Below, piece after piece: positions 1 through 16,707 of a DNA stretch of 19,628 nt (the first letter of the stretch is position 1; the number at the start of each line of letters is the position of its first letter). The stretch lies in the UHGV virus genome UHGV-0278008, one strand, 5' to 3'. The DNA is from a virus. A program made the position numbers and the translations under genes. The notes beneath the pieces are model-generated. The model saw nothing but the letters and a program-made list of their open reading frames with translations. It made no database searches and was not told the origin of the DNA.

Positions 1-171
1 ATACAGGTTCGTCAGATATGTCAGCAGCCCAAACAGCTGACTCCCCAGCACGCCTATTGCCGCCCACTGAGACGGGGAAACCCTGTCCAGCAACTGCAGG
101 AACCAGTAGCCCGTTCCCACCGCTGACGTGGTGTATGACACACCTGTTGTGATTTTTTCCATCTGGTACAT
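1..171 (-). CDS. Holin, phage 21 S / EssQ-like (class II), N-terminal 57 codons only; gene continues beyond window start
   Basis: ATG at 171..169 preceded by GGGAGG; translation [57 protein letters not shown] matches recalled S21-type holin N-terminus with TM segments; not in ORF track because no stop within window. Confidence 0.75.
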
Positions 172-206
172 ACCCCGCCTCCCGCAATCCGGAAGCTCAC
201 AACAAT

Positions 207-236
207 AAAAAAGACCACCGGCACACACCGATGGTC
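207..236 (-). terminator. Intrinsic terminator between 81-aa gene and holin
   Basis: Minus-strand hairpin gaccatcgg/ccggtggtc (9 bp, one G-U) followed by T6. Confidence 0.55.
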
Positions 237-248
237 CCTGACGCATGC

Positions 249-494
249 TTACATCATCATGTCGCTGTCAGGTGTGGGGTCACCGCTATCTGAAGCACTC
301 CCCTCACCCGCGATACCTTCCGGCTCCGGAGCTGCCGGTGCGCCCAGCAGTTCATCCAGAATGGCATCCACTTCTGCATCAAGACGCGCTTCCAGGTTAT
401 GGCGAAGTTTCTGTTTCAGTGCGCTCAGGACTTCTTCAGAGCGCAGGACTTCCTTCACTGCTTCAGCAGTGACCAGGGATGTAATTTCTGACAT
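249..494 (-). CDS. Hypothetical small acidic protein (81 aa)
   Basis: ORF-track frame trimmed to internal ATG at 494..492 ([16 protein letters not shown]...); acidic, Pro-rich C-terminus; weak SD. Confidence 0.55.
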
Positions 495-534
495 GGGATT
501 TTCTCGTCGAAAGATGTGATTAAGAAAGTTGCCG

Positions 535-714
535 CTAAATGAGCGGCTCTTCGGGTTTGCTTCCGGCTGACTGACTGGCGCTGATTTTCTCAGCGGCCCT
601 TTTGTCAATCTGTCTGCGCCAGAAGTCACGCATGGCCCGGTATCCGCCCGAAAGGAGATACAGCACACAGACCACCGTACAGAAGTACAGCATTAACTGG
701 TTCAGAAATGTCAT
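535..714 (-). CDS. Small membrane protein (59 aa), hypothetical; not in ORF track
   Basis: ATG at 714..712 with GGTGAG-like SD; MTFLNQLMLYFCTVVCVLYLLSGGYRAMRDFWRRQIDKRAAEKISASQSAGSKPEEPLI: one hydrophobic helix then basic/charged tail; TAG stop at 537..535. Confidence 0.4.
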   Translation of the reverse strand: MTFLNQLMLYFCTVVCVLYLLSGGYRAMRDFWRRQIDKRAAEKISASQSAGSKPEEPLI

Positions 715-799
715 GGTTTCTCACCGTGATAGTTGACATGATTTACTTATTTTTGTAGAAAATGTCGCAAACTTCGGTGTCATAATGGTCGTTTTACCA

Positions 800-862
800 G
801 CCGCCAGCATTCATGTAGTGAACACAGTTCATCCCTTTCCTTCATTGCTGGCGGCTTTTTTT
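800..862 (+). terminator. Plus-strand intrinsic-terminator-like hairpin with no plus-strand ORF upstream (possible sRNA 3' end)
   Basis: gccgccag (800-807) pairs with ctggcggc (848-855), then T7 (856-862). Confidence 0.4.
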
Positions 863-863
863 A

Positions 864-2801
864 TCATGCCGCGGCGTCCGCGTTATTCACTTCCACCGTA
901 ATGCTGTCTATCAGTACCGGGTAAGTCGCACCTTTGGTAATGTCTGTCACATGCAGTTTATCCGCCGCAAAGGCACTGACCGGTGACTGCGTCAGCGTGA
1001 ACGGTGTACCATCCTGACCATCAATAACCGGCGTCACCTGAAGGCTGTTATTCCCGGCAAAGCGGAAAGCCAGCGTATGCCATTCGTTATCAAATGCGCC
1101 AAAGCTTCCCAGTTTCAGGTTGTTTGTCGCCACTTTCGCATTGTGGTACATCACATTCAGGTCTTTTGCATCTGTCTGGATGTAGAACGCTGCCAGCAGG
1201 TTATTCCCCCCGTCTCCGGTCAGGGCAACGCCCTGTGGCAGTGAAGATACCGGCCAGTAAAACGCCATAACATACTGGTTCGCAGCCAGCGCTCCCGAAG
1301 CCTTAAAGCGGCAGCGAATCTGCCCCCCTTTCTGTAACAGAGCCGCACCGTTGCCTGCAGCGTACTCCAGCACCCAGCTGCTTTTACCGGCTTCCTTGGT
1401 CACCTTCACAGCCTTACCTCCGGTTCCCTCCGCATCGCTGACCACTTCTGCCCTGCCGCCACTGGCTGACCATCCCTGTACTTTCAGGCTTCCCTCTGAC
1501 TCGCTGGCAAGGTAAGAGAGCAGTGTTGTGACGCCTGTGACTTCTGCACCGGAAGGCGATGACGGACGCACCTCTGATACTGTCGATGATGCCCCCGCGT
1601 TTAGCGCCACTCTTCCCGCATGGCGCAGAATCGCCGTTGCCAGACGGTCGGAAATAATCCCCCGGCGTGCCCAGGTGCTGAAATGGCTCGCCCTGTCCTG
1701 TGACGTCCAGGTGGCTGAGCTGTCACGCCATTTCGAACCGTAATACCCGATACCCGGAATGTCCGGGTCTTCTTCCGGTTTGTTCGTCGGCACATTCACC
1801 CCGTTCTCATCCGTCATGAACGGTACGAAATGGATATTCTTTTCCGTTTTGTTTTTATAGCTGCCGTACACCGTCTGGTACGTGGATTCGTTCTTCTGCT
1901 TCCAGAAATACGTCGCGTCCCCGCATATCCAGGGAACACCACCAGCAGAGCCACCGACGCACTGGCCTGCCATATCCGCCAGGTCTGCACGGAATTTATC
2001 AACCAGCGCACCAAACTGTGCTGCGTGATTTCCGGGCGTGCCGTCAAAATCAAATTCCCCCTGCATCCACACCACGGCAAACAGCACATTTTTCGGGTTC
2101 CTCTTCAGTGCTGCTTTTGTTCGACCGATAAGGTCCTTATACAGCGGCTTGTCCACACCCCAGCGCGCTGAATTCTCCGAGGCACCGCCAGCGTCACTGT
2201 ATGTGCCATCAGCTCCGGTGGTGAACGCGGAACCACCACGACAGCACGGAACCAGCAGAATACCCGCATTCGCCGGTATAAACGGCAGCAGTTTTTTGGC
2301 GATATGCAGCCCCTGCCCCACGGTTCCGTACTGCCCCTTTGACAGGTCCGCTTTCGGATGGTTAAGACGGCTCATGTCCTGCACATCATGCAGACAATGG
2401 TCCGCCGGAATGATGTCGTTATATTTACAGGCGACACCGCCCGGTGTCACCGTACTGCGGCGCGCCAACTGCTTAATACGCGGGTCCGGACGGTCATATG
2501 TCTCCGGCAGCGGAAGACCTTCACCATACGACATGCCATTTGACTGCCCTGCCAGAACCACAACAAAGTAATACTCCGGGTCGCTGGTGGCACTGACAGC
2601 CACCGCCTTACCCTCATTACCGGTCACCGCCACTGGTGTGGTGACATCACCTTCCGCCGCAATGGCCTGCATCAGGGTATAAGGCGTGATGGCCACCGGA
2701 CTGCCAAATGGCTGCCAGCCCTCCTTCAGTTTTTGTGTCAGTCGTTCAGCAAGGTCTGACGGCGATGCCGCCCTGACCACATCGTAGTGTTTAAATGTCA
2801 T
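864..2801 (-). CDS. nanS-p: Prophage sialate O-acetylesterase NanS-p type (N-terminal DUF1737-like region plus SGNH/SASA esterase), 645 aa
   Basis: ATG with GGAGG SD; N-terminus MTFKHYDVVRAASPSDLAERL... and GQSN esterase motif (VVLAGQSNGMSYGEG); size and position (downstream of the stx slot, upstream of S) as in Stx-phage nanS-p, from memory. Confidence 0.8.
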   Translation of the reverse strand: MTFKHYDVVRAASPSDLAERLTQKLKEGWQPFGSPVAITPYTLMQAIAAEGDVTTPVAVTGNEGKAVAVSATSDPEYYFVVVLAGQSNGMSYGEGLPLPETYDRPDPRIKQLARRSTVTPGGVACKYNDIIPADHCLHDVQDMSRLNHPKADLSKGQYGTVGQGLHIAKKLLPFIPANAGILLVPCCRGGSAFTTGADGTYSDAGGASENSARWGVDKPLYKDLIGRTKAALKRNPKNVLFAVVWMQGEFDFDGTPGNHAAQFGALVDKFRADLADMAGQCVGGSAGGVPWICGDATYFWKQKNESTYQTVYGSYKNKTEKNIHFVPFMTDENGVNVPTNKPEEDPDIPGIGYYGSKWRDSSATWTSQDRASHFSTWARRGIISDRLATAILRHAGRVALNAGASSTVSEVRPSSPSGAEVTGVTTLLSYLASESEGSLKVQGWSASGGRAEVVSDAEGTGGKAVKVTKEAGKSSWVLEYAAGNGAALLQKGGQIRCRFKASGALAANQYVMAFYWPVSSLPQGVALTGDGGNNLLAAFYIQTDAKDLNVMYHNAKVATNNLKLGSFGAFDNEWHTLAFRFAGNNSLQVTPVIDGQDGTPFTLTQSPVSAFAADKLHVTDITKGATYPVLIDSITVEVNNADAAA

Positions 2802-2995
2802 GAATCCTCCCGGCCGGGATAGTGTACTGAATCAGATAAAGAGCGGGCTGAAGTCCGGAAGTTACAGGACAATGGCAGAAGGGAGACTGACAGCCCGCAA
2901 TTCGAAAAAGGCCGCGCAGTTGCGCAGAGTGATTACCATGGGGTATTATTCGCCAGCTGAAATATTACTTCACGTTTTGTTGTTTATTCCTTGCC

Positions 2996-3024
2996 GCCCG
3001 CGTCTCCCAGCGCGGGCTTTTTTT
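2996..3024 (+). terminator. Intrinsic terminator, plus strand
   Basis: gcccgcg/cgcgggc stem followed by T7. Confidence 0.5.
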
Positions 3025-3030
3025 GCCCAT

Positions 3031-3055
3031 AAAAAAAGCCCCTCCGGAGAGGGGC
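3031..3055 (-). terminator. Intrinsic terminator, minus strand (end of TerB-like transcription unit)
   Basis: gcccctc/gaggggc stem with 4-nt loop; A7 on plus strand = U-run on minus. Confidence 0.5.
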
Positions 3056-3305
3056 TGACGCTGCGTATCTGTATCATCATGCGCATGGTGCCGGGTGCCT
3101 CCCGGTGAGTTCAGTCCGGTGTCCCTGAACCCGCGTATCTCGATCCAGGTTGTCGTCAGAGATGACACCTTATACACCAGTCGCCCCTCCGCACAGGGGG
3201 ATTCACCATGCGAAATTTTTTTAACAAATGCTCAGTCTGACAGGCAACTGTCAACTGACTGAATTGTGAGACATTTAAAATTTTCGGGGCATGACTGATA
3301 CCCGG

Positions 3306-3470
3306 CTAACTACCTGGCATGTCCTTTTTAACCAAAGGAAAAAGCACCACCACAATGCCGACCACCAGCACTCCATCCGCCAGCACCGACATGATCCTGC
3401 TGGTGAAATCCACCATCACCACCAGAAACAGCAGGAGTGCCACAGCGGCCAGACGCAGTTTTACCGTCAC
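3306..3470 (-). CDS. Small hydrophobic protein (about 54 aa from GTG, or 36 aa from internal ATG), hypothetical; not in ORF track
   Basis: GTG at 3470..3468 overlaps the TerB-like stop (GTGA); translation VTVKLRLAAVALLLFLVVMVDFTSRIMSVLADGVLVVGIVVVLFPLVKKDMPGS has two hydrophobic stretches. Confidence 0.3.
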   Translation of the reverse strand: MTVKLRLAAVALLLFLVVMVDFTSRIMSVLADGVLVVGIVVVLFPLVKKDMPGS

Positions 3471-3898
3471 AGGTGGTTCTCCAGTCGCAGGCCAAGAACA
3501 CCAGCAATCTCTTCCAGAACCTTACGCTCTTCCGGCTCAATTTCACCATCTGCTTCAGCAATGGCCACCGCCACATCCAGCACATCTTCCGCTTCACGCG
3601 TATCGTGTTTCACATCTTCAATTTCACGCAACGCCGATCGACGACCAATTTTAAAGTTGGTGTCAAGCTGACCTGTGATCGTGGCACTGATGGCATTAAT
3701 TTCTGACGTAAACGCGGACAACGCAGGCTGGTTACGCAAGACCTGCTCGATCTTCGCTTTCTCTGAAGCCTCACATTCACCATCTGCATAGGCTACCAGG
3801 TAGGCAGCATTAATAACCGCCTGTGCCAGATCGCGTTTCTCAAACTTTTTAATTTCCGCTGCCGCTCTGCGGGTTTTCTTTTTGAAAATACCAAACAT
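3467..3898 (-). CDS. TerB-like (tellurite-resistance TerB family) protein, 143 aa
   Basis: ATG at 3898..3896 with AAAGGAA SD; MFGIFKKKTRRAAAEIKKFEKRDLAQAVINAAYLVAYADGECEASEKAKIEQVL...EADGEIEPEERKVLEEIAGVLGL resembles TerB helical fold with ADGE repeats (recalled family features). Confidence 0.65.
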   Translation of the reverse strand: MFGIFKKKTRRAAAEIKKFEKRDLAQAVINAAYLVAYADGECEASEKAKIEQVLRNQPALSAFTSEINAISATITGQLDTNFKIGRRSALREIEDVKHDTREAEDVLDVAVAIAEADGEIEPEERKVLEEIAGVLGLRLENHL

Positions 3899-4030
3899 CG
3901 TGACGTTCCTTTGGGTGGGTGAGCCAACGCCCGGGAGCGATCTGCCCACAGAGAAAGTCACACTGACCACTCCGTAAGCTCACCCCCGAAAGGCTCTGTG
4001 GTTGATATGCGCCGGGCGTGGCGCGGATAC

Positions 4031-4054
4031 AAAAAAGGCCCGCAAAAGCGAGCC
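4031..4054 (-). terminator. Intrinsic terminator after tRNA cluster
   Basis: Minus-strand ggctcgc-tttt-gcgggcc hairpin followed by T6. Confidence 0.55.
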
Positions 4055-4068
4055 TGGTAAATAAATAT

Positions 4069-4145
4069 GGCGCGTTGTACTGGATTCGAACCAGTGACCG
4101 ATTGCTTAGAAGGCAATTGCTCTGTCCGGCTGAGCTAACAACGCA
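4069..4145 (-). tRNA. tRNA-Arg, anticodon UCU, CCA encoded
   Basis: Hand-folded cloverleaf: acceptor gcgttgt/acaacgc, D-arm gctc/gagc, anticodon loop cttCTaa, T-loop ttcgaat. Confidence 0.8.
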
Positions 4146-4158
4146 GTGTACCGATAAT

Positions 4159-4235
4159 GGACCGCCATCGAGGACTCGAACCCCGCGCAACCAGCTTCGA
4201 AGGCTGGCGCTCTGTCCCGATGAGCTAATGGCGGT
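4159..4235 (-). tRNA. tRNA-Arg, anticodon UCG, CCA encoded
   Basis: Acceptor ccgccat/atggcgg, anticodon loop ctTCGaa, T-arm cgggg-ttcgagt-cctcg. Confidence 0.75.
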
Positions 4236-4244
4236 ATGTGATAT

Positions 4245-4320
4245 GGTGGCCCTTGCTGGATTTGAACCAGCGACCTGGCGATTATGAGTCGCTCGCTCTC
4301 ACCACTGAGCTAAAGGGCCG
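4245..4320 (-). tRNA. tRNA with anticodon CAU (Ile2-type or Met), CCA encoded
   Basis: Acceptor ggccctt/aagggcc, D-arm gctc-agtggtga-gagc, anticodon loop ctCATaa, T-loop GGTTCAAATCC; same order as ileZ-argN-argO of Stx phages. Confidence 0.8.
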
Positions 4321-4359
4321 GGCGCAGGATAATAACGGTACGTAACTAATCCTGCAATA

Positions 4360-5418
4360 TCATCCGTTCTTACTGACTAAATCCTGAACTTCCCTGACCG
4401 TCTGCTCAAAACGTTCAGTCTCCAGCTCAACGCCAGTTGCACGACGTCCCAGCGCCATCGCTGCTTTGACTGTCGAACCCGACCCCATGAAAAAATCTGC
4501 AACCAGGTCACCCGGACGACTGCTCGCGCTGATTATCTGCTGCAGCATTTCTGCTGGTTTTTCGCACGGATGTTTCCCGGGATAGTACTGCACCGGTTTA
4601 TGCGTCCACACATCGGTGTACGGCACCTGCGCCGTCACGCCAAAATACCGCCGCAGATACTTATATTCACTCTGCAGTTCCGCATACTGCCGGTTCAGTT
4701 CACTGTATGTGCTGACCAGTTGGTGATGTGGCTTTTCCAGTTCTCCGCGCTGATGCTTCTCTTCTGCCACCCGGGCAAACAGCGCCTGTAATTTCAGATA
4801 ATCGCTTTCGTCCGGTAGCTGCCACTGGCTGGCACTGAACCAGTGCGACACCATGTTTTTCTTTCCTGTGGCATCAGCAATCTGTTTTGCCGTTATCCCC
4901 AGGGCAGCACGTGCATCACGAAAGTAAGAAATCAGCGGGGCCATCACATGCTGTTTCAGTGCCCTGCCCTTCGCCTCATACCCGGCATCTTTCGGGCGAT
5001 ACGGCCCCTGATAATGTTCCGCGAACAGAATGCGCTCTGTGGCGGGGAAATACGCCCGCAGGCTTTCCTTGTTGCACCCGTTCCAGCGTCCGGACGGCTT
5101 CGCCCAGATAATATGGTTCAGCACACTGAAGCGTTCACGCATCATGATTTCAATGTCAGACGCCAGGCGATGACCACAGAACAGGTAAAGACTTCCGGCA
5201 GGTTTCAGCACCCGCCAGAACTGCGCAAGACACTGGTCCAGCCATTTCAGGTAATCCTCATCCCCCGTCCACTGGTTATCCCAGCCCTCGGGCTTCACTT
5301 TAAAGTATGGCGGGTCTGTGACTATCAGATCGACAGAGTTTTCCGGTAAGGTCTGGATAAATTCCAGGCAATCAGCGTTGATTAGCTCACAACTGGATAT
5401 TTTTACAGTATTAGCCAT
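4360..5418 (-). CDS. DNA methyltransferase, beta-class (N6-adenine or N4-cytosine), orphan; 352 aa
   Basis: Motif IV DPPY near N-terminus (LIVTDPPYF) and motif I FxGxGST near C-terminus (DFFMGSGSTV); no adjacent restriction endonuclease. Confidence 0.85.
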   Translation of the reverse strand: MANTVKISSCELINADCLEFIQTLPENSVDLIVTDPPYFKVKPEGWDNQWTGDEDYLKWLDQCLAQFWRVLKPAGSLYLFCGHRLASDIEIMMRERFSVLNHIIWAKPSGRWNGCNKESLRAYFPATERILFAEHYQGPYRPKDAGYEAKGRALKQHVMAPLISYFRDARAALGITAKQIADATGKKNMVSHWFSASQWQLPDESDYLKLQALFARVAEEKHQRGELEKPHHQLVSTYSELNRQYAELQSEYKYLRRYFGVTAQVPYTDVWTHKPVQYYPGKHPCEKPAEMLQQIISASSRPGDLVADFFMGSGSTVKAAMALGRRATGVELETERFEQTVREVQDLVSKNG

Positions 5419-5558
5419 AGATCAATAAGCACTTCTCTGATAGGCTCATTCTGCTTTTGCGCAAAGCAGTGGGCCTGAGGTTTGCTTGTGATCCGGACGC
5501 ATGAGCAGATGGCTGGTGAGTGCCCCTAACACCCACCAGCCGCCCATTTACCACAAAT

Positions 5559-5582
5559 AAAAAAGCCTTCAGGACTGAAGGC
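5559..5582 (-). terminator. Intrinsic terminator overlapping 3' end of the 65-aa gene
   Basis: Minus-strand gccttca/tgaaggc hairpin followed by a U-rich run. Confidence 0.5.
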
Positions 5583-5766
5583 GTCTGTAACAACCGAACT
5601 GATAGTCTGCCAGACCCGCCATAACAAGCTGGGTCAGTATTAACTGACAGCGTTCGCGTGAAAGGTAAGTATTCTGTGCAATCTCCCCGACTGTCGCCGG
5701 TTCGGTGACGCTTAATTCATTAAACACCACTCTGGCGGTTTCTGTCATATCCTGCTGTTTCAGCAT
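5569..5766 (-). CDS. Small winged-helix-like protein (65 aa), hypothetical
   Basis: ATG at 5766..5764 with AAAGGGGAAAAG SD; the longer 106-aa ORF-track version would start with GTG directly after the tR' U-run and lacks an SD. Confidence 0.5.
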   Translation of the reverse strand: MLKQQDMTETARVVFNELSVTEPATVGEIAQNTYLSRERCQLILTQLVMAGLADYQFGCYRRLQS

Positions 5767-5889
5767 GTCTTTTCCCCTTTTCCGGTTAACGTGACACACC
5801 AATAACTCTTGTCGAAAAAGCCAGCAAGCTGAAAGAACGGTATTAATAACCACCAGCGAATTTATTGCGCTGCTGTATATTACGGACAC

Positions 5890-5910
5890 AAAAAAACCAC
5901 CTTCCGGTGG
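5890..5910 (-). terminator. tR'-like intrinsic terminator immediately downstream of the Q-like gene
   Basis: Minus-strand ccacc-ggaa-ggtgg hairpin followed by U7 (A-run 5890-5896 on plus). Confidence 0.65.
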
Positions 5911-5982
5911 CTTCCTTGTGCGAAAAAACTTGCGTTTCGCCTCGCGATACAGCCTTGCGAAGCTTATACGGATTGAAGCAGT
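5911..5982 (-). promoter_or_regulatory. Putative late promoter (pR'-like) and qut region between Q stop and tR'
   Basis: Position only; candidate TTGCAA -35 just after the Q stop; hexamers not securely assigned. Confidence 0.3.
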
Positions 5983-6555
5983 TTATTGATCAGTTTGCAA
6001 CATTTTTTTCTCTGTAACAAAAGCCATACGCATGGGGGCATGTAACATAAATTCAGATATCCCCAACCACTGATCAATTCGGCGTCTGCACGTAACCAAC
6101 GTCCACTCAGGATGATCTGCATTTAACCTTTCGGCCATTTTCAGTTTGCTCATTCCCCGTCCTTCGTACCTTTGCCGGAGAATATTGATTAGTCCGGGAT
6201 ATTCCCCAAGCACCTCACTGATAACGCGATCAATAATCAACGCCTCTGTGTCTGTACAATGTGACAACCAGCTCTTCTGCTTCCCTCTGGTCATATCCCG
6301 AAAAAATGCCTCAAGTTCCGGTTTATCCAGCCCGGATTTCTTCATTCTGCGTAAAACTTCATTAACTGCTGTTTTCGTCAGCTTTTTCGAAACCAGTAAC
6401 CGGTTAAACATATTTCCGGATTTACCCCCACCTATATACGACCACCGCCCCCACATCCGTAATTTCCCCTGGATCCAGACTGCTTCCAGCGTGTTCAGGC
6501 GTAAATGTTCGCCGCTTTTGCCTGTAATTTCCGGATATATCATATTTACGCTCAC
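5983..6555 (-). CDS. Putative late-gene antiterminator Q-like protein (190 aa)
   Basis: Immediately downstream of rusA with ATGA overlap and followed by promoter/terminator then late genes; W-G-R-W motif; family assignment from position and recall. Confidence 0.5.
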   Translation of the reverse strand: MSVNMIYPEITGKSGEHLRLNTLEAVWIQGKLRMWGRWSYIGGGKSGNMFNRLLVSKKLTKTAVNEVLRRMKKSGLDKPELEAFFRDMTRGKQKSWLSHCTDTEALIIDRVISEVLGEYPGLINILRQRYEGRGMSKLKMAERLNADHPEWTLVTCRRRIDQWLGISEFMLHAPMRMAFVTEKKMLQTDQ

Positions 6556-6923: not shown

Positions 6924-7973
6924 TTACCCGAGCACGCCAGTCGCAAAGGCGTGATCAAGAAAACGAAAAATTAACTCAATCTGAGAGCCGTACTTTTTCT
7001 CAAACTTCAGCGGGTCTGCATGAAGTTCGTTGTGGTGCTCCCGGCACAACGGTAGCGTGAAAATATCGTGGGCCTTTGTTCCCATTCCCCCCTGACCATG
7101 ACCAATCAGGTGATGCGGATCGTCAGCTGGCTTACCACAACACGCACACGGCTGTGTCTTTACCCAGCGCGTGTATTTCTCATTAACCCAACGGCGACGT
7201 TTAGGCCGCCTCATGAACGATTCAGGAGACTCCGGATCAACAGCGATACTGACAACCGTTTTTTTCTGTGGTGGATTTTGTTGCTGGTGGACGTGAAGTG
7301 GCAGCGCAATATTTTTTGTGCGCTGCTTCAGTATGCTGATGGCTGTCTGTTCTCCCGGTACGATGTCACTCTCACGGTATACGGAGCGGATTTTTTCCGC
7401 TGGTAATCCCAGCGAACGACGCGCTACTGCCTCAGGTAGTGCATCCACCACCTGATTGCAGGCCGCCCACCAGGATAATTCGGCCAGCGATAACTCCCTC
7501 TCCTGCGTACCGCTTATTGCGTGACGGATGACATCAATCATCCAGGCAACCAGATTCTGCTGAGCAAGTTGATCGAGTGATTCTGATGTCTGGTCGCGCA
7601 GCTGGTTGTCACAGTGCCAGCACAACACCATCGCGCCGGTACCGTAACGGTGAATGACTGTTTCGCTGTGATGATAATCGCCGTGTGGCCACTGGCAGGA
7701 TTTCACGTGACGTAATAACCAGTCAGACAGTGCACCTGCACCACCTGCTGCACGAATAACCCGCTCATCGCTGAAAAATGGCAGTAATGTTTTATCCTCT
7801 GCCAGCGGCTGGCGAACGGCAGGAACGACTCCGGACGGCAGACCGCGCATGTTTTTCGGTTCCGGCTCCACCAATATTCTGCCGTTATGGAATACTGACA
7901 TTGATTCACGGCCTGGCTTAACGATAACCAGACCGAGTTCCGGTACCAGAACAGGTCGAAGTAATACCCGCAC
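6924..7973 (-). CDS. DUF968-family prophage protein (YdfU-like) with C-terminal Cys/His zinc-binding HNH-like motif, 349 aa
   Basis: GTG start at 7973 with GGAGG SD; C-terminus CACCGKPADDPHHLIGHG...CREHHNELH; same size and position as YdfU of Qin. Confidence 0.7.
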   Translation of the reverse strand: MRVLLRPVLVPELGLVIVKPGRESMSVFHNGRILVEPEPKNMRGLPSGVVPAVRQPLAEDKTLLPFFSDERVIRAAGGAGALSDWLLRHVKSCQWPHGDYHHSETVIHRYGTGAMVLCWHCDNQLRDQTSESLDQLAQQNLVAWMIDVIRHAISGTQERELSLAELSWWAACNQVVDALPEAVARRSLGLPAEKIRSVYRESDIVPGEQTAISILKQRTKNIALPLHVHQQQNPPQKKTVVSIAVDPESPESFMRRPKRRRWVNEKYTRWVKTQPCACCGKPADDPHHLIGHGQGGMGTKAHDIFTLPLCREHHNELHADPLKFEKKYGSQIELIFRFLDHAFATGVLG

Positions 7974-8415: not shown

Positions 8416-8571
8416 TTACTTCTCAGATTCGTAGTCTACGAAGACAGCAACCTCCGTCTGGCCGGTTCGGATTCGTACCTCGCAGAGGTCTTTCCTCGTT
8501 ACCAGTGCCGTCACTATGACGGTTAAACAGATGACGATCAGGGCGATTAACATCGCCTTTTGCTGCTTCAT
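8416..8571 (-). CDS. hok: Hok/Gef-family type I toxin (51 aa)
   Basis: MKQQKAMLIALIVICLTVIVTALVTRKDLCEVRIRTGQTEVAVF... is near-identical in pattern to HokD/HokC. Confidence 0.85.
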   Translation of the reverse strand: MKQQKAMLIALIVICLTVIVTALVTRKDLCEVRIRTGQTEVAVFVDYESEK

Positions 8572-8628
8572 AGTCTGCTTCTCCTTGACCTTTCGGTCCG
8601 TAAGAGGCAATCTATATGTGACGAGCAT
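8416..8628 (-). CDS. Mok-like in-frame N-terminally extended reading frame over hok (70 aa)
   Basis: ATG at 8628..8626 with GTGAGG SD; MLVTYRLPLTDRKVKEKQTM- extension resembles recalled MokC N-terminus. Confidence 0.45.
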   Translation of the reverse strand: MLVTYRLPLTDRKVKEKQTMKQQKAMLIALIVICLTVIVTALVTRKDLCEVRIRTGQTEVAVFVDYESEK

Positions 8629-8671
8629 ATAGGGGCCTCACTTCGATTTATAGTCGGGTGGGGCTTTTATC
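8600..8671 (+). ncRNA. Candidate Sok-like antisense RNA; 5' end not determined
   Basis: Plus-strand hairpin gcctcac (8634-8640) / gtggggc (8660-8666) plus U-run 8667-8670, antisense to the mok SD/start; TTGACC at 8585-8590 is a possible -35. Confidence 0.35.
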
Positions 8672-8816
8672 TATCTGCCGTTGGTGTTCATGCCCGAGGC
8701 AGATAGCCTCAAGCACCCGCAGCAATTTTACAAAAACAAACTATTATTTTCTATGTCCTTTCACTTGTCTCATTTCTGACTATACTGATCGCTCACACAA
8801 CACAAAAGGTATAAAA

Positions 8817-15608: not shown

Positions 15609-15666
15609 CCATGTGTAGTCTTTGGTGGCATCAGTTCTACTCCGTGACTGCTCTGCCACCCTTTTT
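15609..15666 (+). ncRNA. dicF: DicF-like sRNA (3' two-thirds conserved, including terminator)
   Basis: GGTGGCATCAGTTCTACTCCGTGACTGCTCTGCCACCC+TTTTT closely matches recalled DicF 3' region GGCGGUAUCAGUUUUACUCCGUGACUGCUCUGCCGCCCUUUUU; 5' boundary uncertain. Confidence 0.6.
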
Positions 15667-16149
15667 AAAGTGAATTTTGTGATGCGGTGAATGCGGCTAA
15701 GCGCACGCGGAACAGTTAAAACAAGCGGTCTTTTACTGGCGTAACAGACATCAACTAACAATCCGGCGTTAATTGTTAACTGGTTAACGTCACCTGGAGG
15801 CACCAGGCACTGCATCAACAAAGTTCACTTCGGTGATGAAGGGTAAGAGAAAATGTTGAATGTAGCTATTGAAAACCAGAATGGGTGGAATTATAGTGCA
15901 CCTGCACCTCATAAAGCGGGTGCCGGGCGTGGAAACCCGATGATGACTACTGCGCATAACCGCGCTCAGGCGGTTTTTTTATGCGTAATGCACAGCCACA
16001 TTCAGATTATGGTGGGGCGTGCAGGGCAGCCGAAAGGCTGGCCGGTTTCGGTAGTCACCGGTATTTCCACCCCTGTACGTCTCACCACCCTTATGGTCGT
16101 GGAAAGCCTTGGTGGTGAGTTATTTAAACTGACTATCGAGGCTGCCATC

Positions 16150-16707
16150 ATGGCTACTATCCCTGCCCTTTCTCACCCTGACGTAACCATCGAAAATGGA
16201 CGCGCTGTCACTACGTCTATTGCGATCGCTGAGTTCTTTGGTAAACGCCACGAACGAGTGTTGGATAAAATTCGCAATCTGGACTGTTCAGCAAAATTCA
16301 CTGAGCACAATTTTGTGTCGAGCGAATATACCGACTCAACCAGTCGCAAACTCCCAATGTACCAAATCACCAAAAACGGCTTCGTTTTCCTGGTGATGGG
16401 CTTCACCGGCAAAAAAGCCGCTGCATTTAAAGAAGCCTACATCGCTGAGTTCGATCGCATGGAGAAAGAACTGCGCCAGAATAACGCCCCGTCTCCCGAC
16501 AAAATGATTCACGGGGACGGACGTACCATGGTTATCCGTCTCGACGAACACGGCAATATCAAATTCACTGAAACCGTTCCGGACGGCGCAATGGTCTGCA
16601 CCCTGGATACCTTCCAGTTTTACCTGGAGAAACAAGGCTGGACTCTTGTAAACCGGAGCGCAATTAAAAATATGACTGTGGAGCAATTACTAAAAATTCA
16701 TTGTTGA
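16150..16707 (+). CDS. Rha / ORF6N-domain phage regulatory protein (185 aa from ATG 16150; ORF open from 15853)
   Basis: GAGG SD before ATG 16150; ORF6N/Rha-like motif VTTSIAIAEFFGKRHERVLDKIRNL; upstream in-frame region contains a terminator-like hairpin. Confidence 0.6.
   Translation: MATIPALSHPDVTIENGRAVTTSIAIAEFFGKRHERVLDKIRNLDCSAKFTEHNFVSSEYTDSTSRKLPMYQITKNGFVFLVMGFTGKKAAAFKEAYIAEFDRMEKELRQNNAPSPDKMIHGDGRTMVIRLDEHGNIKFTETVPDGAMVCTLDTFQFYLEKQGWTLVNRSAIKNMTVEQLLKIHC

Follow-up and report, generated by a model that had tools for sequence, protein, structure and literature searches.

The minus strand of the virus genome stretch UHGV-0278008 (19,628 nucleotides (nt), considered at its full length and called the window below) carries what is, with near certainty, the tciA-tciB accessory cassette of the phage P1 type. 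The two genes encode a TerB-domain protein and a small, predicted two-helix membrane protein, they stand at the position at which a Shiga toxin 2a (Stx2a) phage has its toxin genes, and they are preceded by a conserved structured 5' leader. A first-pass annotation had described them as a TerB-like gene coupled to a small hydrophobic open reading frame (ORF) in the stxAB slot of an Stx-phage-like late region, and had suggested that they may form an uncharacterised module of lysogenic conversion or phage exclusion. Overall, that interpretation is partly supported. The placement and the identity of the proteins stand, the novelty does not, the lysogenic role is unlikely, and the leader adds a further feature, which is not a mere spacer.

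The assignment of TciA to the TerB family, which had been anticipated, is borne out by sequence and by predicted structure. The protein matches Pfam TerB (PF05099) over residues 26-138 with E=1.1e-16 and 61.7 bits (cut-off 24.4), the 'tellurite resistance' family phrog_632 over positions 1-143 of 143 (E=1.6e-69) and the sequence of Klebsiella TerB, for which a nuclear magnetic resonance structure exists (PDB 2jxu, E=7.9e-8); NCBIfam adds a weak match to DjlA (E=7.5e-7). The AlphaFold2 model is all-helical, with seven helices and a predicted local distance difference test score of 87.4, the basic amphipathic N-terminus (MFGIFKKK...) being its lower-confidence part. A Foldseek comparison of this model with the PDB returned as its top three matches chains of 2h5n (probability 1.00, TM 0.54-0.63), which we take to be a member of the TerB-like superfamily. 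D39, G40, E46 and E124 are invariant over nine distant phage homologues, and D117 and G118 are nearly invariant in 30 closer ones; the duplicated acidic D-G...E motifs to which such residues belong are predicted to form a ligand or metal site.

TciB matches DUF3927 (Pfam PF13064, E=3.2e-16, 59.5 bits, cut-off 25) and, over positions 1-51 of 54, the 'TciB-like' family phrog_1470 (E=1.4e-24). Its Kyte-Doolittle profile has two hydrophobic peaks, at approximately residues 3-23 and 26-47, with a short VDFTSR turn between them, and its conserved motifs are VDFT(S/G) and ADG. The family is a narrow one, with 51 clusters at 50% identity among 1.84 billion representatives. Comparison of four E. coli and phage copies has shown that both genes are under purifying selection, the ratio of nonsynonymous to synonymous change (dN/dS) being 0.01-0.07 for tciA, with dS up to 0.66, and 0.12-0.38 for tciB. 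Among the TciA-encoding loci that have enough downstream sequence, a TciB-like ORF starts at a distance of 60 nt or less from the tciA stop in 106 of 122, and the unpaired loci are mostly non-enterobacterial homologues or fragments. In the window the tciA stop and the tciB start share a GTGA overlap, and the offsets between the two codons range from -4 to +3 nt in P1, JLK-2012, PPyecE, Klebsiella phage 5 LV-2017, SP-076 and Asesino. tciA and tciB have thus been shown to move together as one unit through Enterobacterales phages, and the small ORF, as had been proposed, is a real and conserved gene, translationally coupled to its upstream neighbour and encoding a predicted two-helix membrane protein.

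A small membrane partner of TerB recurs even though its family differs: every close TciA has an overlapping one, and these partners belong to two unrelated families. In the Pseudomonas phages Lana (L010) and AF (L006), the TerB gene overlaps by 4 nt the gene for a different protein of 71-73 amino acids (aa), which has one N-terminal hydrophobic segment and the conserved motif C(E/Q)WYGYQT...VGCMV...GW.P. TciA of the window is a standalone TerB and not part of a ter operon; linkage to terC, terD, terZ, terA or terE was not found, the neighbours being transfer RNA (tRNA) genes, the DUF3927 gene, a small RNA (sRNA) gene and nanS-p. Downstream of tciB, the window has no tciC-like ORF. A longer TciA of 167 aa, with its N-terminus extended to a start at GTG 3970, was ruled out, since the homologues begin at the ATG and the sequence before it acts as an RNA structure. 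Two database proteins, P0004 (197 aa, E. coli PA11) and P0066, join TerB and DUF3927 in one chain; P0004 probably results from a frameshift at the GTGA overlap or from a sequencing error there and is not a natural fusion, because its junction reads as an out-of-frame stretch (...ENTCDGKTAP...). Because a few lambdoid phages have a TciB-like DUF3927 ORF without an adjacent tciA, TciB may sometimes act or persist alone (examples are H174, phage 434, 43008-43126; H173, phage 2B8; and L085, 4168-4327).

The pair is already known, named and annotated, and it is a very common phage accessory pair. Its gene names derive from P1. In the GenBank record of that phage, the ban operon, which C1 represses, contains tciA, tciB and tciC as well as three tRNA genes, with a function given 'by homology'; GenBank also uses tciA/tciB in phage JLK-2012 and 'TciA/TerB-like' in prophage PPyecE_EH1910, and the RefSeq names are 'tellurite resistance TerB family protein' and 'DUF3927 family protein'. 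P1 TciA is 42% identical to the window protein over its full length, the 54-aa DUF3927 TciB of P1 likewise begins at the tciA stop, and the two systems also have in common adjacent tRNA genes and an expression that is tied, for the window pair presumably, to lytic development. The P1 genes differ in that tciC is present, the promoter is the C1-controlled Pban and a structured leader is lacking, whereas the window pair belongs to a presumably Q-dependent late operon without tciC.

The 601-bp core of the pair, at a coverage of at least 80%, is present in 803 of 5426 complete E. coli genomes, at up to 8 places per genome, and O157:H7 strains have it at 3-5 places among the matches listed; one O157:H7 strain has, in succession, a Q-like gene, tRNA-Ile/Arg, TerB, DUF3927, esterase and holin. 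The identical TciB protein is encoded on 998 contigs. The pair is routine in non-Stx lambdoid prophages, those of O157:H7 included, and the view that it is an unnoticed module therefore has to be given up. Its carriers also include virulent phages, namely the Erwinia jumbo phage Asesino, in which it follows tRNA genes, and the N4-like Salmonella phage SP-076, in which it lies among replication genes; the virulent Pseudomonas phages Lana and AF have TerB with their other small membrane partner. A tRNA gene is found at most 400 nt upstream of tciA in 32 of 111 loci. The adjacent tRNAs differ between carriers: Cys in Asesino (L005 1007-1830), Asn/Thr/Gly in JLK-2012 (L001 5126-6120), Asn/Thr/Ile in P1 (L004 2116-3776) and Ile/Arg/Arg in the window.

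The distance between the upstream terminator and the tciA ATG is approximately 135-137 nt, and this stretch, far from being a spacer, forms a conserved structured leader that begins 8 nt after the terminator. The leader is 99% identical between the window and the JLK-2012 or O157:H7 copy, compared with 90% for the tciA coding sequences, and it is still 82-87% identical to copies whose TciA is 46-47% identical. It was found upstream of tciA in 18 loci in genomes and phages, Asesino among them. RNAalifold predicts a long-range helix (helix b) in which CCUUU and GGUGAGC pair with GCUCACC and AAAGG, the latter being the Shine-Dalgarno (SD) motif; a second helix (helix a), formed by CCACAGAG and CUCUGUGG, interleaves with it. 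Compensatory changes in helix a are seen in Asesino (CCGUAGAG/CUCUACGG), in the Enterobacterales genome CwR94 and in copies upstream of antirepressor genes.

The RNA structure of the leader, with its compensatory changes, has been shown by comparison of aligned sequences. In alignment A5, 96.7% of the cells are paired, compared with 39-48% in slid controls, and 10 of 33 pairs have changes on both sides (controls 0-3); the corresponding values are 96.1% against 37-48% and 17 of 33 pairs against 0-5 for alignment A6, and 99.2% against 37-49% and 9 of 33 pairs against 0-4 for alignment A7. When these alignments were shuffled, 0 of 500 shuffles reached the observed paired cells, both-side-changed pairs or covariation score. 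The minimum-free-energy fold is the SD-sequestered state in four of the five sequences folded, and in those four, forcing the other helix costs 7-11 kcal/mol. A simultaneous formation of both helices as an H-type pseudoknot was judged sterically implausible, because helix a abuts the base of the approximately 35-bp helix b while its partner strand a' sits in the apical loop; we infer from the modelled folds that helices a and b are alternative states.

A covariance model revealed that the leader is not confined to tciA. Full-length copies lie directly upstream of an ANT/KilAC antirepressor gene (in an O157:H7 lysis cassette), of a P22_AR_N antirepressor gene and of the genes for two other proteins. 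A hairpin with a T-run is situated just upstream of nearly every copy examined, and the sequence of this hairpin varies between copies. The leader is present in 1242 of 5426 complete E. coli genomes (approximately 23%), with no annotation beneath it. A search of Rfam 15 gave nothing at the gathering score in 3895-4035, only chance-level matches at E up to 10 being returned, and no family match for the leader copy of the antirepressor gene. The possibility that it is a known Rfam family, including the Mn riboswitches linked to TerC, was thus rejected on this Rfam search, which does not extend to names given in transcriptome studies. Pairing of the leader with the sRNAs of the window (STnc100-type, IsrK, DicF, C4, sok) was also rejected, since the duplex energies were no better than those of shuffled sRNAs (z -1.6 to +0.4).

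There are precedents for such phage leaders. The 5' leader of the lambda cIII mRNA (Rfam Lambda_thermo) can adopt either of two incompatible folds, and in one of them the SD motif is occluded, as is proposed for the tciA leader, and the leaders of lambda N and the R-sites of T7 are processed by ribonuclease III (RNase III), for which the long imperfect duplex of the tciA leader could be a substrate. The tciA leader differs from these in having no similarity to them by sequence or covariance model, and in being mobile and preceding several unrelated accessory genes.

Conservation of the leader also bears on the view that the cassette is a functionless hitch-hiker that persists only by recombination among lambdoid prophages. 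The dispensability of the pair in P1 and its mosaic, many-copy distribution would fit such an explanation. Nevertheless, it is very unlikely, close to negligible, in the face of a tciA dN/dS far below one at a dS reaching 0.66, of the conservation of the pair from E. coli prophages to Erwinia jumbo phages, and of a leader that has been conserved with compensatory changes.

The late region surrounding the cassette (Table 1), which is that of a lambdoid E. coli prophage, has the Stx-phage-like order on the minus strand that had been recognised before, from the Q-like gene through tR', the methyltransferase gene, the CAU/UCG/UCU tRNA trio, the cargo and nanS-p to the holin gene, and the analysis confirmed it. 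The Stx2a phage Stx2_14040 has the order Q, methylase, tRNA Met/Arg/Arg, stx2A, stx2B, yjhS (nanS-p), holin, and in a blastn comparison it aligns with the window at 89% over 1-3273 and at 96.5% over 4020-5867. The cargo between these flanks is located exactly at the stx2AB position, 746 bp in the window standing where Stx2_14040 has a 1324-bp segment with stx2A and stx2B, which bears out the earlier assignment of the pair to the stxAB slot. The earlier extent of 3306-4054 located the genes correctly, but the segment that differs from the Stx2a phage is 3274-4019. Its right junction lies just past the upstream terminator and its left junction approximately 30 nt upstream of the STnc100-type sRNA gene.

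Table 1. Features of the cassette, its leader and the surrounding late region (window coordinates unless another sequence is named).
Feature	Position	Strand	Basis or remarks
tciA	3467..3898	-	ATG 3898, stop 3467; 143-aa TerB-domain protein, basic amphipathic N-terminus, two D-G...E acidic motifs
tciB	3306..3470	-	GTG 3470, stop 3306; 54-aa predicted two-helix inner-membrane protein, DUF3927
tciA 5' leader	3895..4027 (133 nt)	-	P0 hairpin; helix a CCACAGAG/CUCUGUGG; long helix b, 5' strand CCUUU pairs with SD AAAGG
Other leader copies	L011 2122-2262	-
	L002 1229-1366	-
	L028 5480-5597	+
Cargo segment differing from Stx2a phage	3274..4019 (746 bp)		blastn and junction alignments; no Stx2_14040 counterpart
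Q-like late antiterminator	5983..6555	-	Pfam DUF1133 E=7e-104, Phage_antitermQ E=4.6e-8
tR'-like hairpin with T-run	near 5912-5890	-
N6/N4 DNA methyltransferase	4360..5418	-	Pfam PF01555 E=1.1e-43
tRNA trio CAU, Arg-UCG, Arg-UCU	4068..4319	-	ARAGORN; CAU is Met by ARAGORN, Ile in RefSeq
Intrinsic terminator	4036..4055	-	terminator scan; directly upstream of leader; identical in Stx2a phage
STnc100-type sRNA gene	3025..3240	-	Rfam RF02076, 161.5 bits, E=7.9e-37, full length; backbone, not cargo
Hairpin terminator	3056-3037	-	terminator scan; end of STnc100-type sRNA gene
nanS-p-type sialate O-acetylesterase	864..2801	-	Pfam DUF1737, SASA, DUF6645
Holin, first 57 codons	171-1	-

The terminators on both sides of the pair had been attributed to the cassette itself. 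However, the upstream one is common to Stx2 phages and the downstream one is that of the STnc100-type sRNA gene, so that both belong to the backbone. Because this sRNA gene lies in the backbone held in common with the Stx2a phage, the same gene is also found after stx2B in that phage. It probably belongs to the PasD/STnc100 group, PasD having been described as related to STnc100 (PMC13192938), and a 2026 preprint on Pas sRNAs counts TerB as one of the conserved genes next to the esterase-holin region.

Upstream of stx2A (L003, which is Stx2_14040, 7750-7840), the terminator, a P0-like hairpin (GCGCC...GGUGC) and a AAAGGAAC ribosome-binding site like that of tciA are found. The two cargos therefore have in common the insertion point, which lies after the tRNA-Arg(UCU) terminator and before the genes for the STnc100-type sRNA and nanS-p, as well as these three upstream elements; they differ in that the encoded proteins are unrelated and the leader core, helices a and b, is absent upstream of stx2A. 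From these alignments, tciAB and stx2AB look like alternative cargos swapped at the same two boundaries, and it looks as if either stx2AB has replaced a leader-bearing cassette or recombination happens at these two points. A given phage appears to have one cargo or the other but not both. No phage record contains the two together, and among the 131 records that encode a TciA homologue and the 36 with DNA-level similarity, none is named as an Stx phage, which agrees with the earlier expectation that the pair is not common to stx-positive phages.

Two further loci in the window encode regulatory RNAs. A hok/sok-type toxin-antitoxin locus lies at 8416-8718 (-), with a sok antisense RNA (Rfam, 104.6 bits) overlapping a 70-codon ORF within which a Hok-like hydrophobic peptide is encoded. 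At 15610-16092 (+), DicF (61 bits), IsrK (63.5 bits) and C4 antisense RNA (79 bits) lie upstream of or overlap a 284-aa ORF (15853-16707), a cluster that looks like the C4-ant immunity arrangement of P1/P7 in a lambdoid prophage; the ban operon of P1, which carries tciABC, likewise starts with a dicF-like region.

The possible functions of the pair depend on when it is expressed. A scan of 2700-6200 for a simple sigma-70-like consensus yielded 0 sites, compared with 3.1 expected in shuffled sequences, and the only weak -35/-10-like stretch, read by eye, is taken up by the P0 hairpin. A moron or lysogenic-conversion gene is expected to have its own promoter, and none of the sigma-70 type was found for the pair. 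In P1, tciABC is transcribed during P1vir infection. In view of the missing promoter site, the upstream terminator, the C1 control in P1 and the carriage by virulent phages, we favour expression of tciAB in lytic growth, which would occur via Q-dependent read-through as for stx2, and not in the quiescent lysogen.

The contrary proposal, which the first-pass annotation had put forward, is that of a lysogenic-conversion module that is expressed in the lysogen and confers host stress tolerance (to tellurite, oxidative stress or colicins) or exclusion of other phages. The interval between Q and lysis is indeed a known site of conversion genes such as stx, the ter cluster including TerB gives resistance to tellurite, colicins and phages, and pathogenic E. 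coli contain many copies of tciAB. However, a conversion gene without a recognisable promoter, directly behind a terminator and with its SD motif buried in a stable predicted fold would be poorly placed for expression in a lysogen, the P1 genes are repressed by C1, and strictly virulent phages, which have no lysogens, carry the same pair. In addition, tellurite resistance would not be expected of TerB in the absence of its ter partners (PMC8421299), the smallest tellurite-resistant ter construct listed in the literature being terBCDEF. Taken together, lysogenic conversion is disfavoured and must be considered unlikely. The exclusion of other phages is a reasonable, if speculative, idea and one that had already been proposed for phage TerB genes by Iyer et al. 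2021, who suggested that the standalone TerB of Erwinia jumbo phages acts against superinfecting phages.

If the pair is expressed late, it could also be a regulator of lysis timing, in which the two-helix TciB would act like an antiholin and, together with TciA on the cytoplasmic side, modulate the triggering of the holin. This would agree with its location in lambdoid prophages, in the late operon a short way upstream of the holin gene, and with the holin-like size and hairpin topology of TciB. Yet P1 and the jumbo, N4-like and Pseudomonas phages have the pair among early or replication genes, far from the lysis genes, the nanS-p context lies downstream in only 19 of 72 loci, and neither protein matches a holin or antiholin family in Pfam or PHROG, so that this role is unlikely.

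A lytic-phase function at the inner membrane is a plausible working model, to which we give somewhat less than an even chance. With no promoter of its own having been found and an intrinsic terminator in front of it, the cassette would depend entirely for its transcription on read-through from pR' by Q-modified RNA polymerase, as stx2 does. Translation would be gated further by the 133-nt leader, the most stable fold of which, the long imperfect hairpin, would bury the SD motif, while helix a, being incompatible with that hairpin, would free it; the switch might be triggered by folding during transcription, by RNase III cutting the long duplex, by temperature or by a protein. On the cytoplasmic side of the inner membrane, TciB would serve as the anchor of TciA, aided by the basic amphipathic N-terminus of the latter, and together they would represent a two-polypeptide form of the recurrent arrangement of a TerB domain plus a membrane anchor. 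In the infected cell, the pair would keep the membrane or the proton motive force stable in the face of secondary insults, for example, the entry of superinfecting phage DNA, pore-forming colicins or membrane-depolarising abortive-infection systems, and in this way the phage factory would be protected and premature triggering of the holin prevented.

The membrane-guard step of this model is suggested by analogy with what has been published on related proteins. TerB is membrane-associated and interacts with TerC, according to work on ter proteins; the ter cluster inhibits phages and confers resistance to pore-forming colicins, according to a paper that cites Whelan 1995; the defence systems Bunzi, Shango and Dionysus, which have been proposed to survey the membrane, contain TerB domains; and the proposal of Iyer et al. 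points in the same direction. One known counterpart is the TerB of terZABCDEF, with which TciA has in common the Pfam domain, the helical fold and the duplicated acidic D-G...E motifs, but the window has no terC, terD, terZ, terA or terE nearby, and the partner is a 54-aa hairpin protein instead of TerC. A TerB domain held at the inner membrane is also found in DjlA, which consists of a transmembrane segment, a TerB-like domain and a J domain, and in Bunzi BnzA and Dionysus DinB with their membrane partners. The window pair differs from these in that the proposed anchor is a separate polypeptide, and in having no J domain, helicase or pore-forming toxin and no PADLOC match.

The presence of TerB domains in Shango, Bunzi and Dionysus also allows a different explanation, that the phage TerB domain is an anti-defence decoy that mimics or titrates the TerB sensor modules of these systems. 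Carriage by virulent as well as temperate phages and expression in the lytic cycle would be in line with this. At the sequence level, however, TciA does not resemble the PADLOC models of these systems, and a decoy would leave the obligatory membrane partner without an explanation, so that it has only a slim chance of being correct.

Returning to the membrane-guard model, the leader and the proteins behind it can be considered together. The leader may be an undescribed, mobile class of phage cis-regulatory RNA, an SD-sequestering two-state switch that is nearly always located directly behind an intrinsic terminator and would gate the translation of late-operon accessory genes (tciA, the ANT/KilAC and P22_AR_N antirepressor genes and others), with TciA-TciB behind it as a minimal TerB-based membrane guard or superinfection-exclusion device in lytic growth. 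As a whole, this is a tentative proposal, well short of even probability.

It should be noted that several points weigh against these proposals. Literature on tciA, tciB and DUF3927 consists of annotations, a non-essentiality call in P1 and transcript levels, no functional experiment having been found, and the CRISPR interference result in P1 is that tciA/tciB are dispensable for plaque formation and nothing beyond that. The interaction of TciA with TciB, their membrane location and metal binding are properties that we infer, and the two-state character of the leader, that is, its ON state and the trigger of the switch, is hypothetical. According to the covariance model, tciA of P1 and of SP-076 is without such a leader, and the leader is therefore not needed for protein function. 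The promoter scan was restricted to the simple sigma-70 consensus, and a weak or alternative-sigma promoter, or low read-through in the lysogen, could still provide transcripts. Lastly, of the PADLOC defence models (Shango, Bunzi, TerY-P and others), TciA matched only PDC-S48, with E=0.0024 over 35 residues, and TciB matched nothing; membership of the pair in a known defence system was rejected on this search.

The gene pair itself changes little in our understanding of these phages, and its identification removes the impression of an unusual cargo. Nevertheless, tciAB is among the commonest functionally uncharacterised phage genes of pathogenic E. coli, with several copies per O157:H7 genome, and its carriage by virulent phages points to a role in the lytic cycle. 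The recognition of tciAB and stx2AB as what look like alternatives in one precisely bounded slot helps to explain how cargo is exchanged between Stx phages and their non-toxigenic relatives. The structured leader is the part most worth following up, as it would offer a new handle on the post-transcriptional control of accessory genes in late operons, antirepressor genes included.

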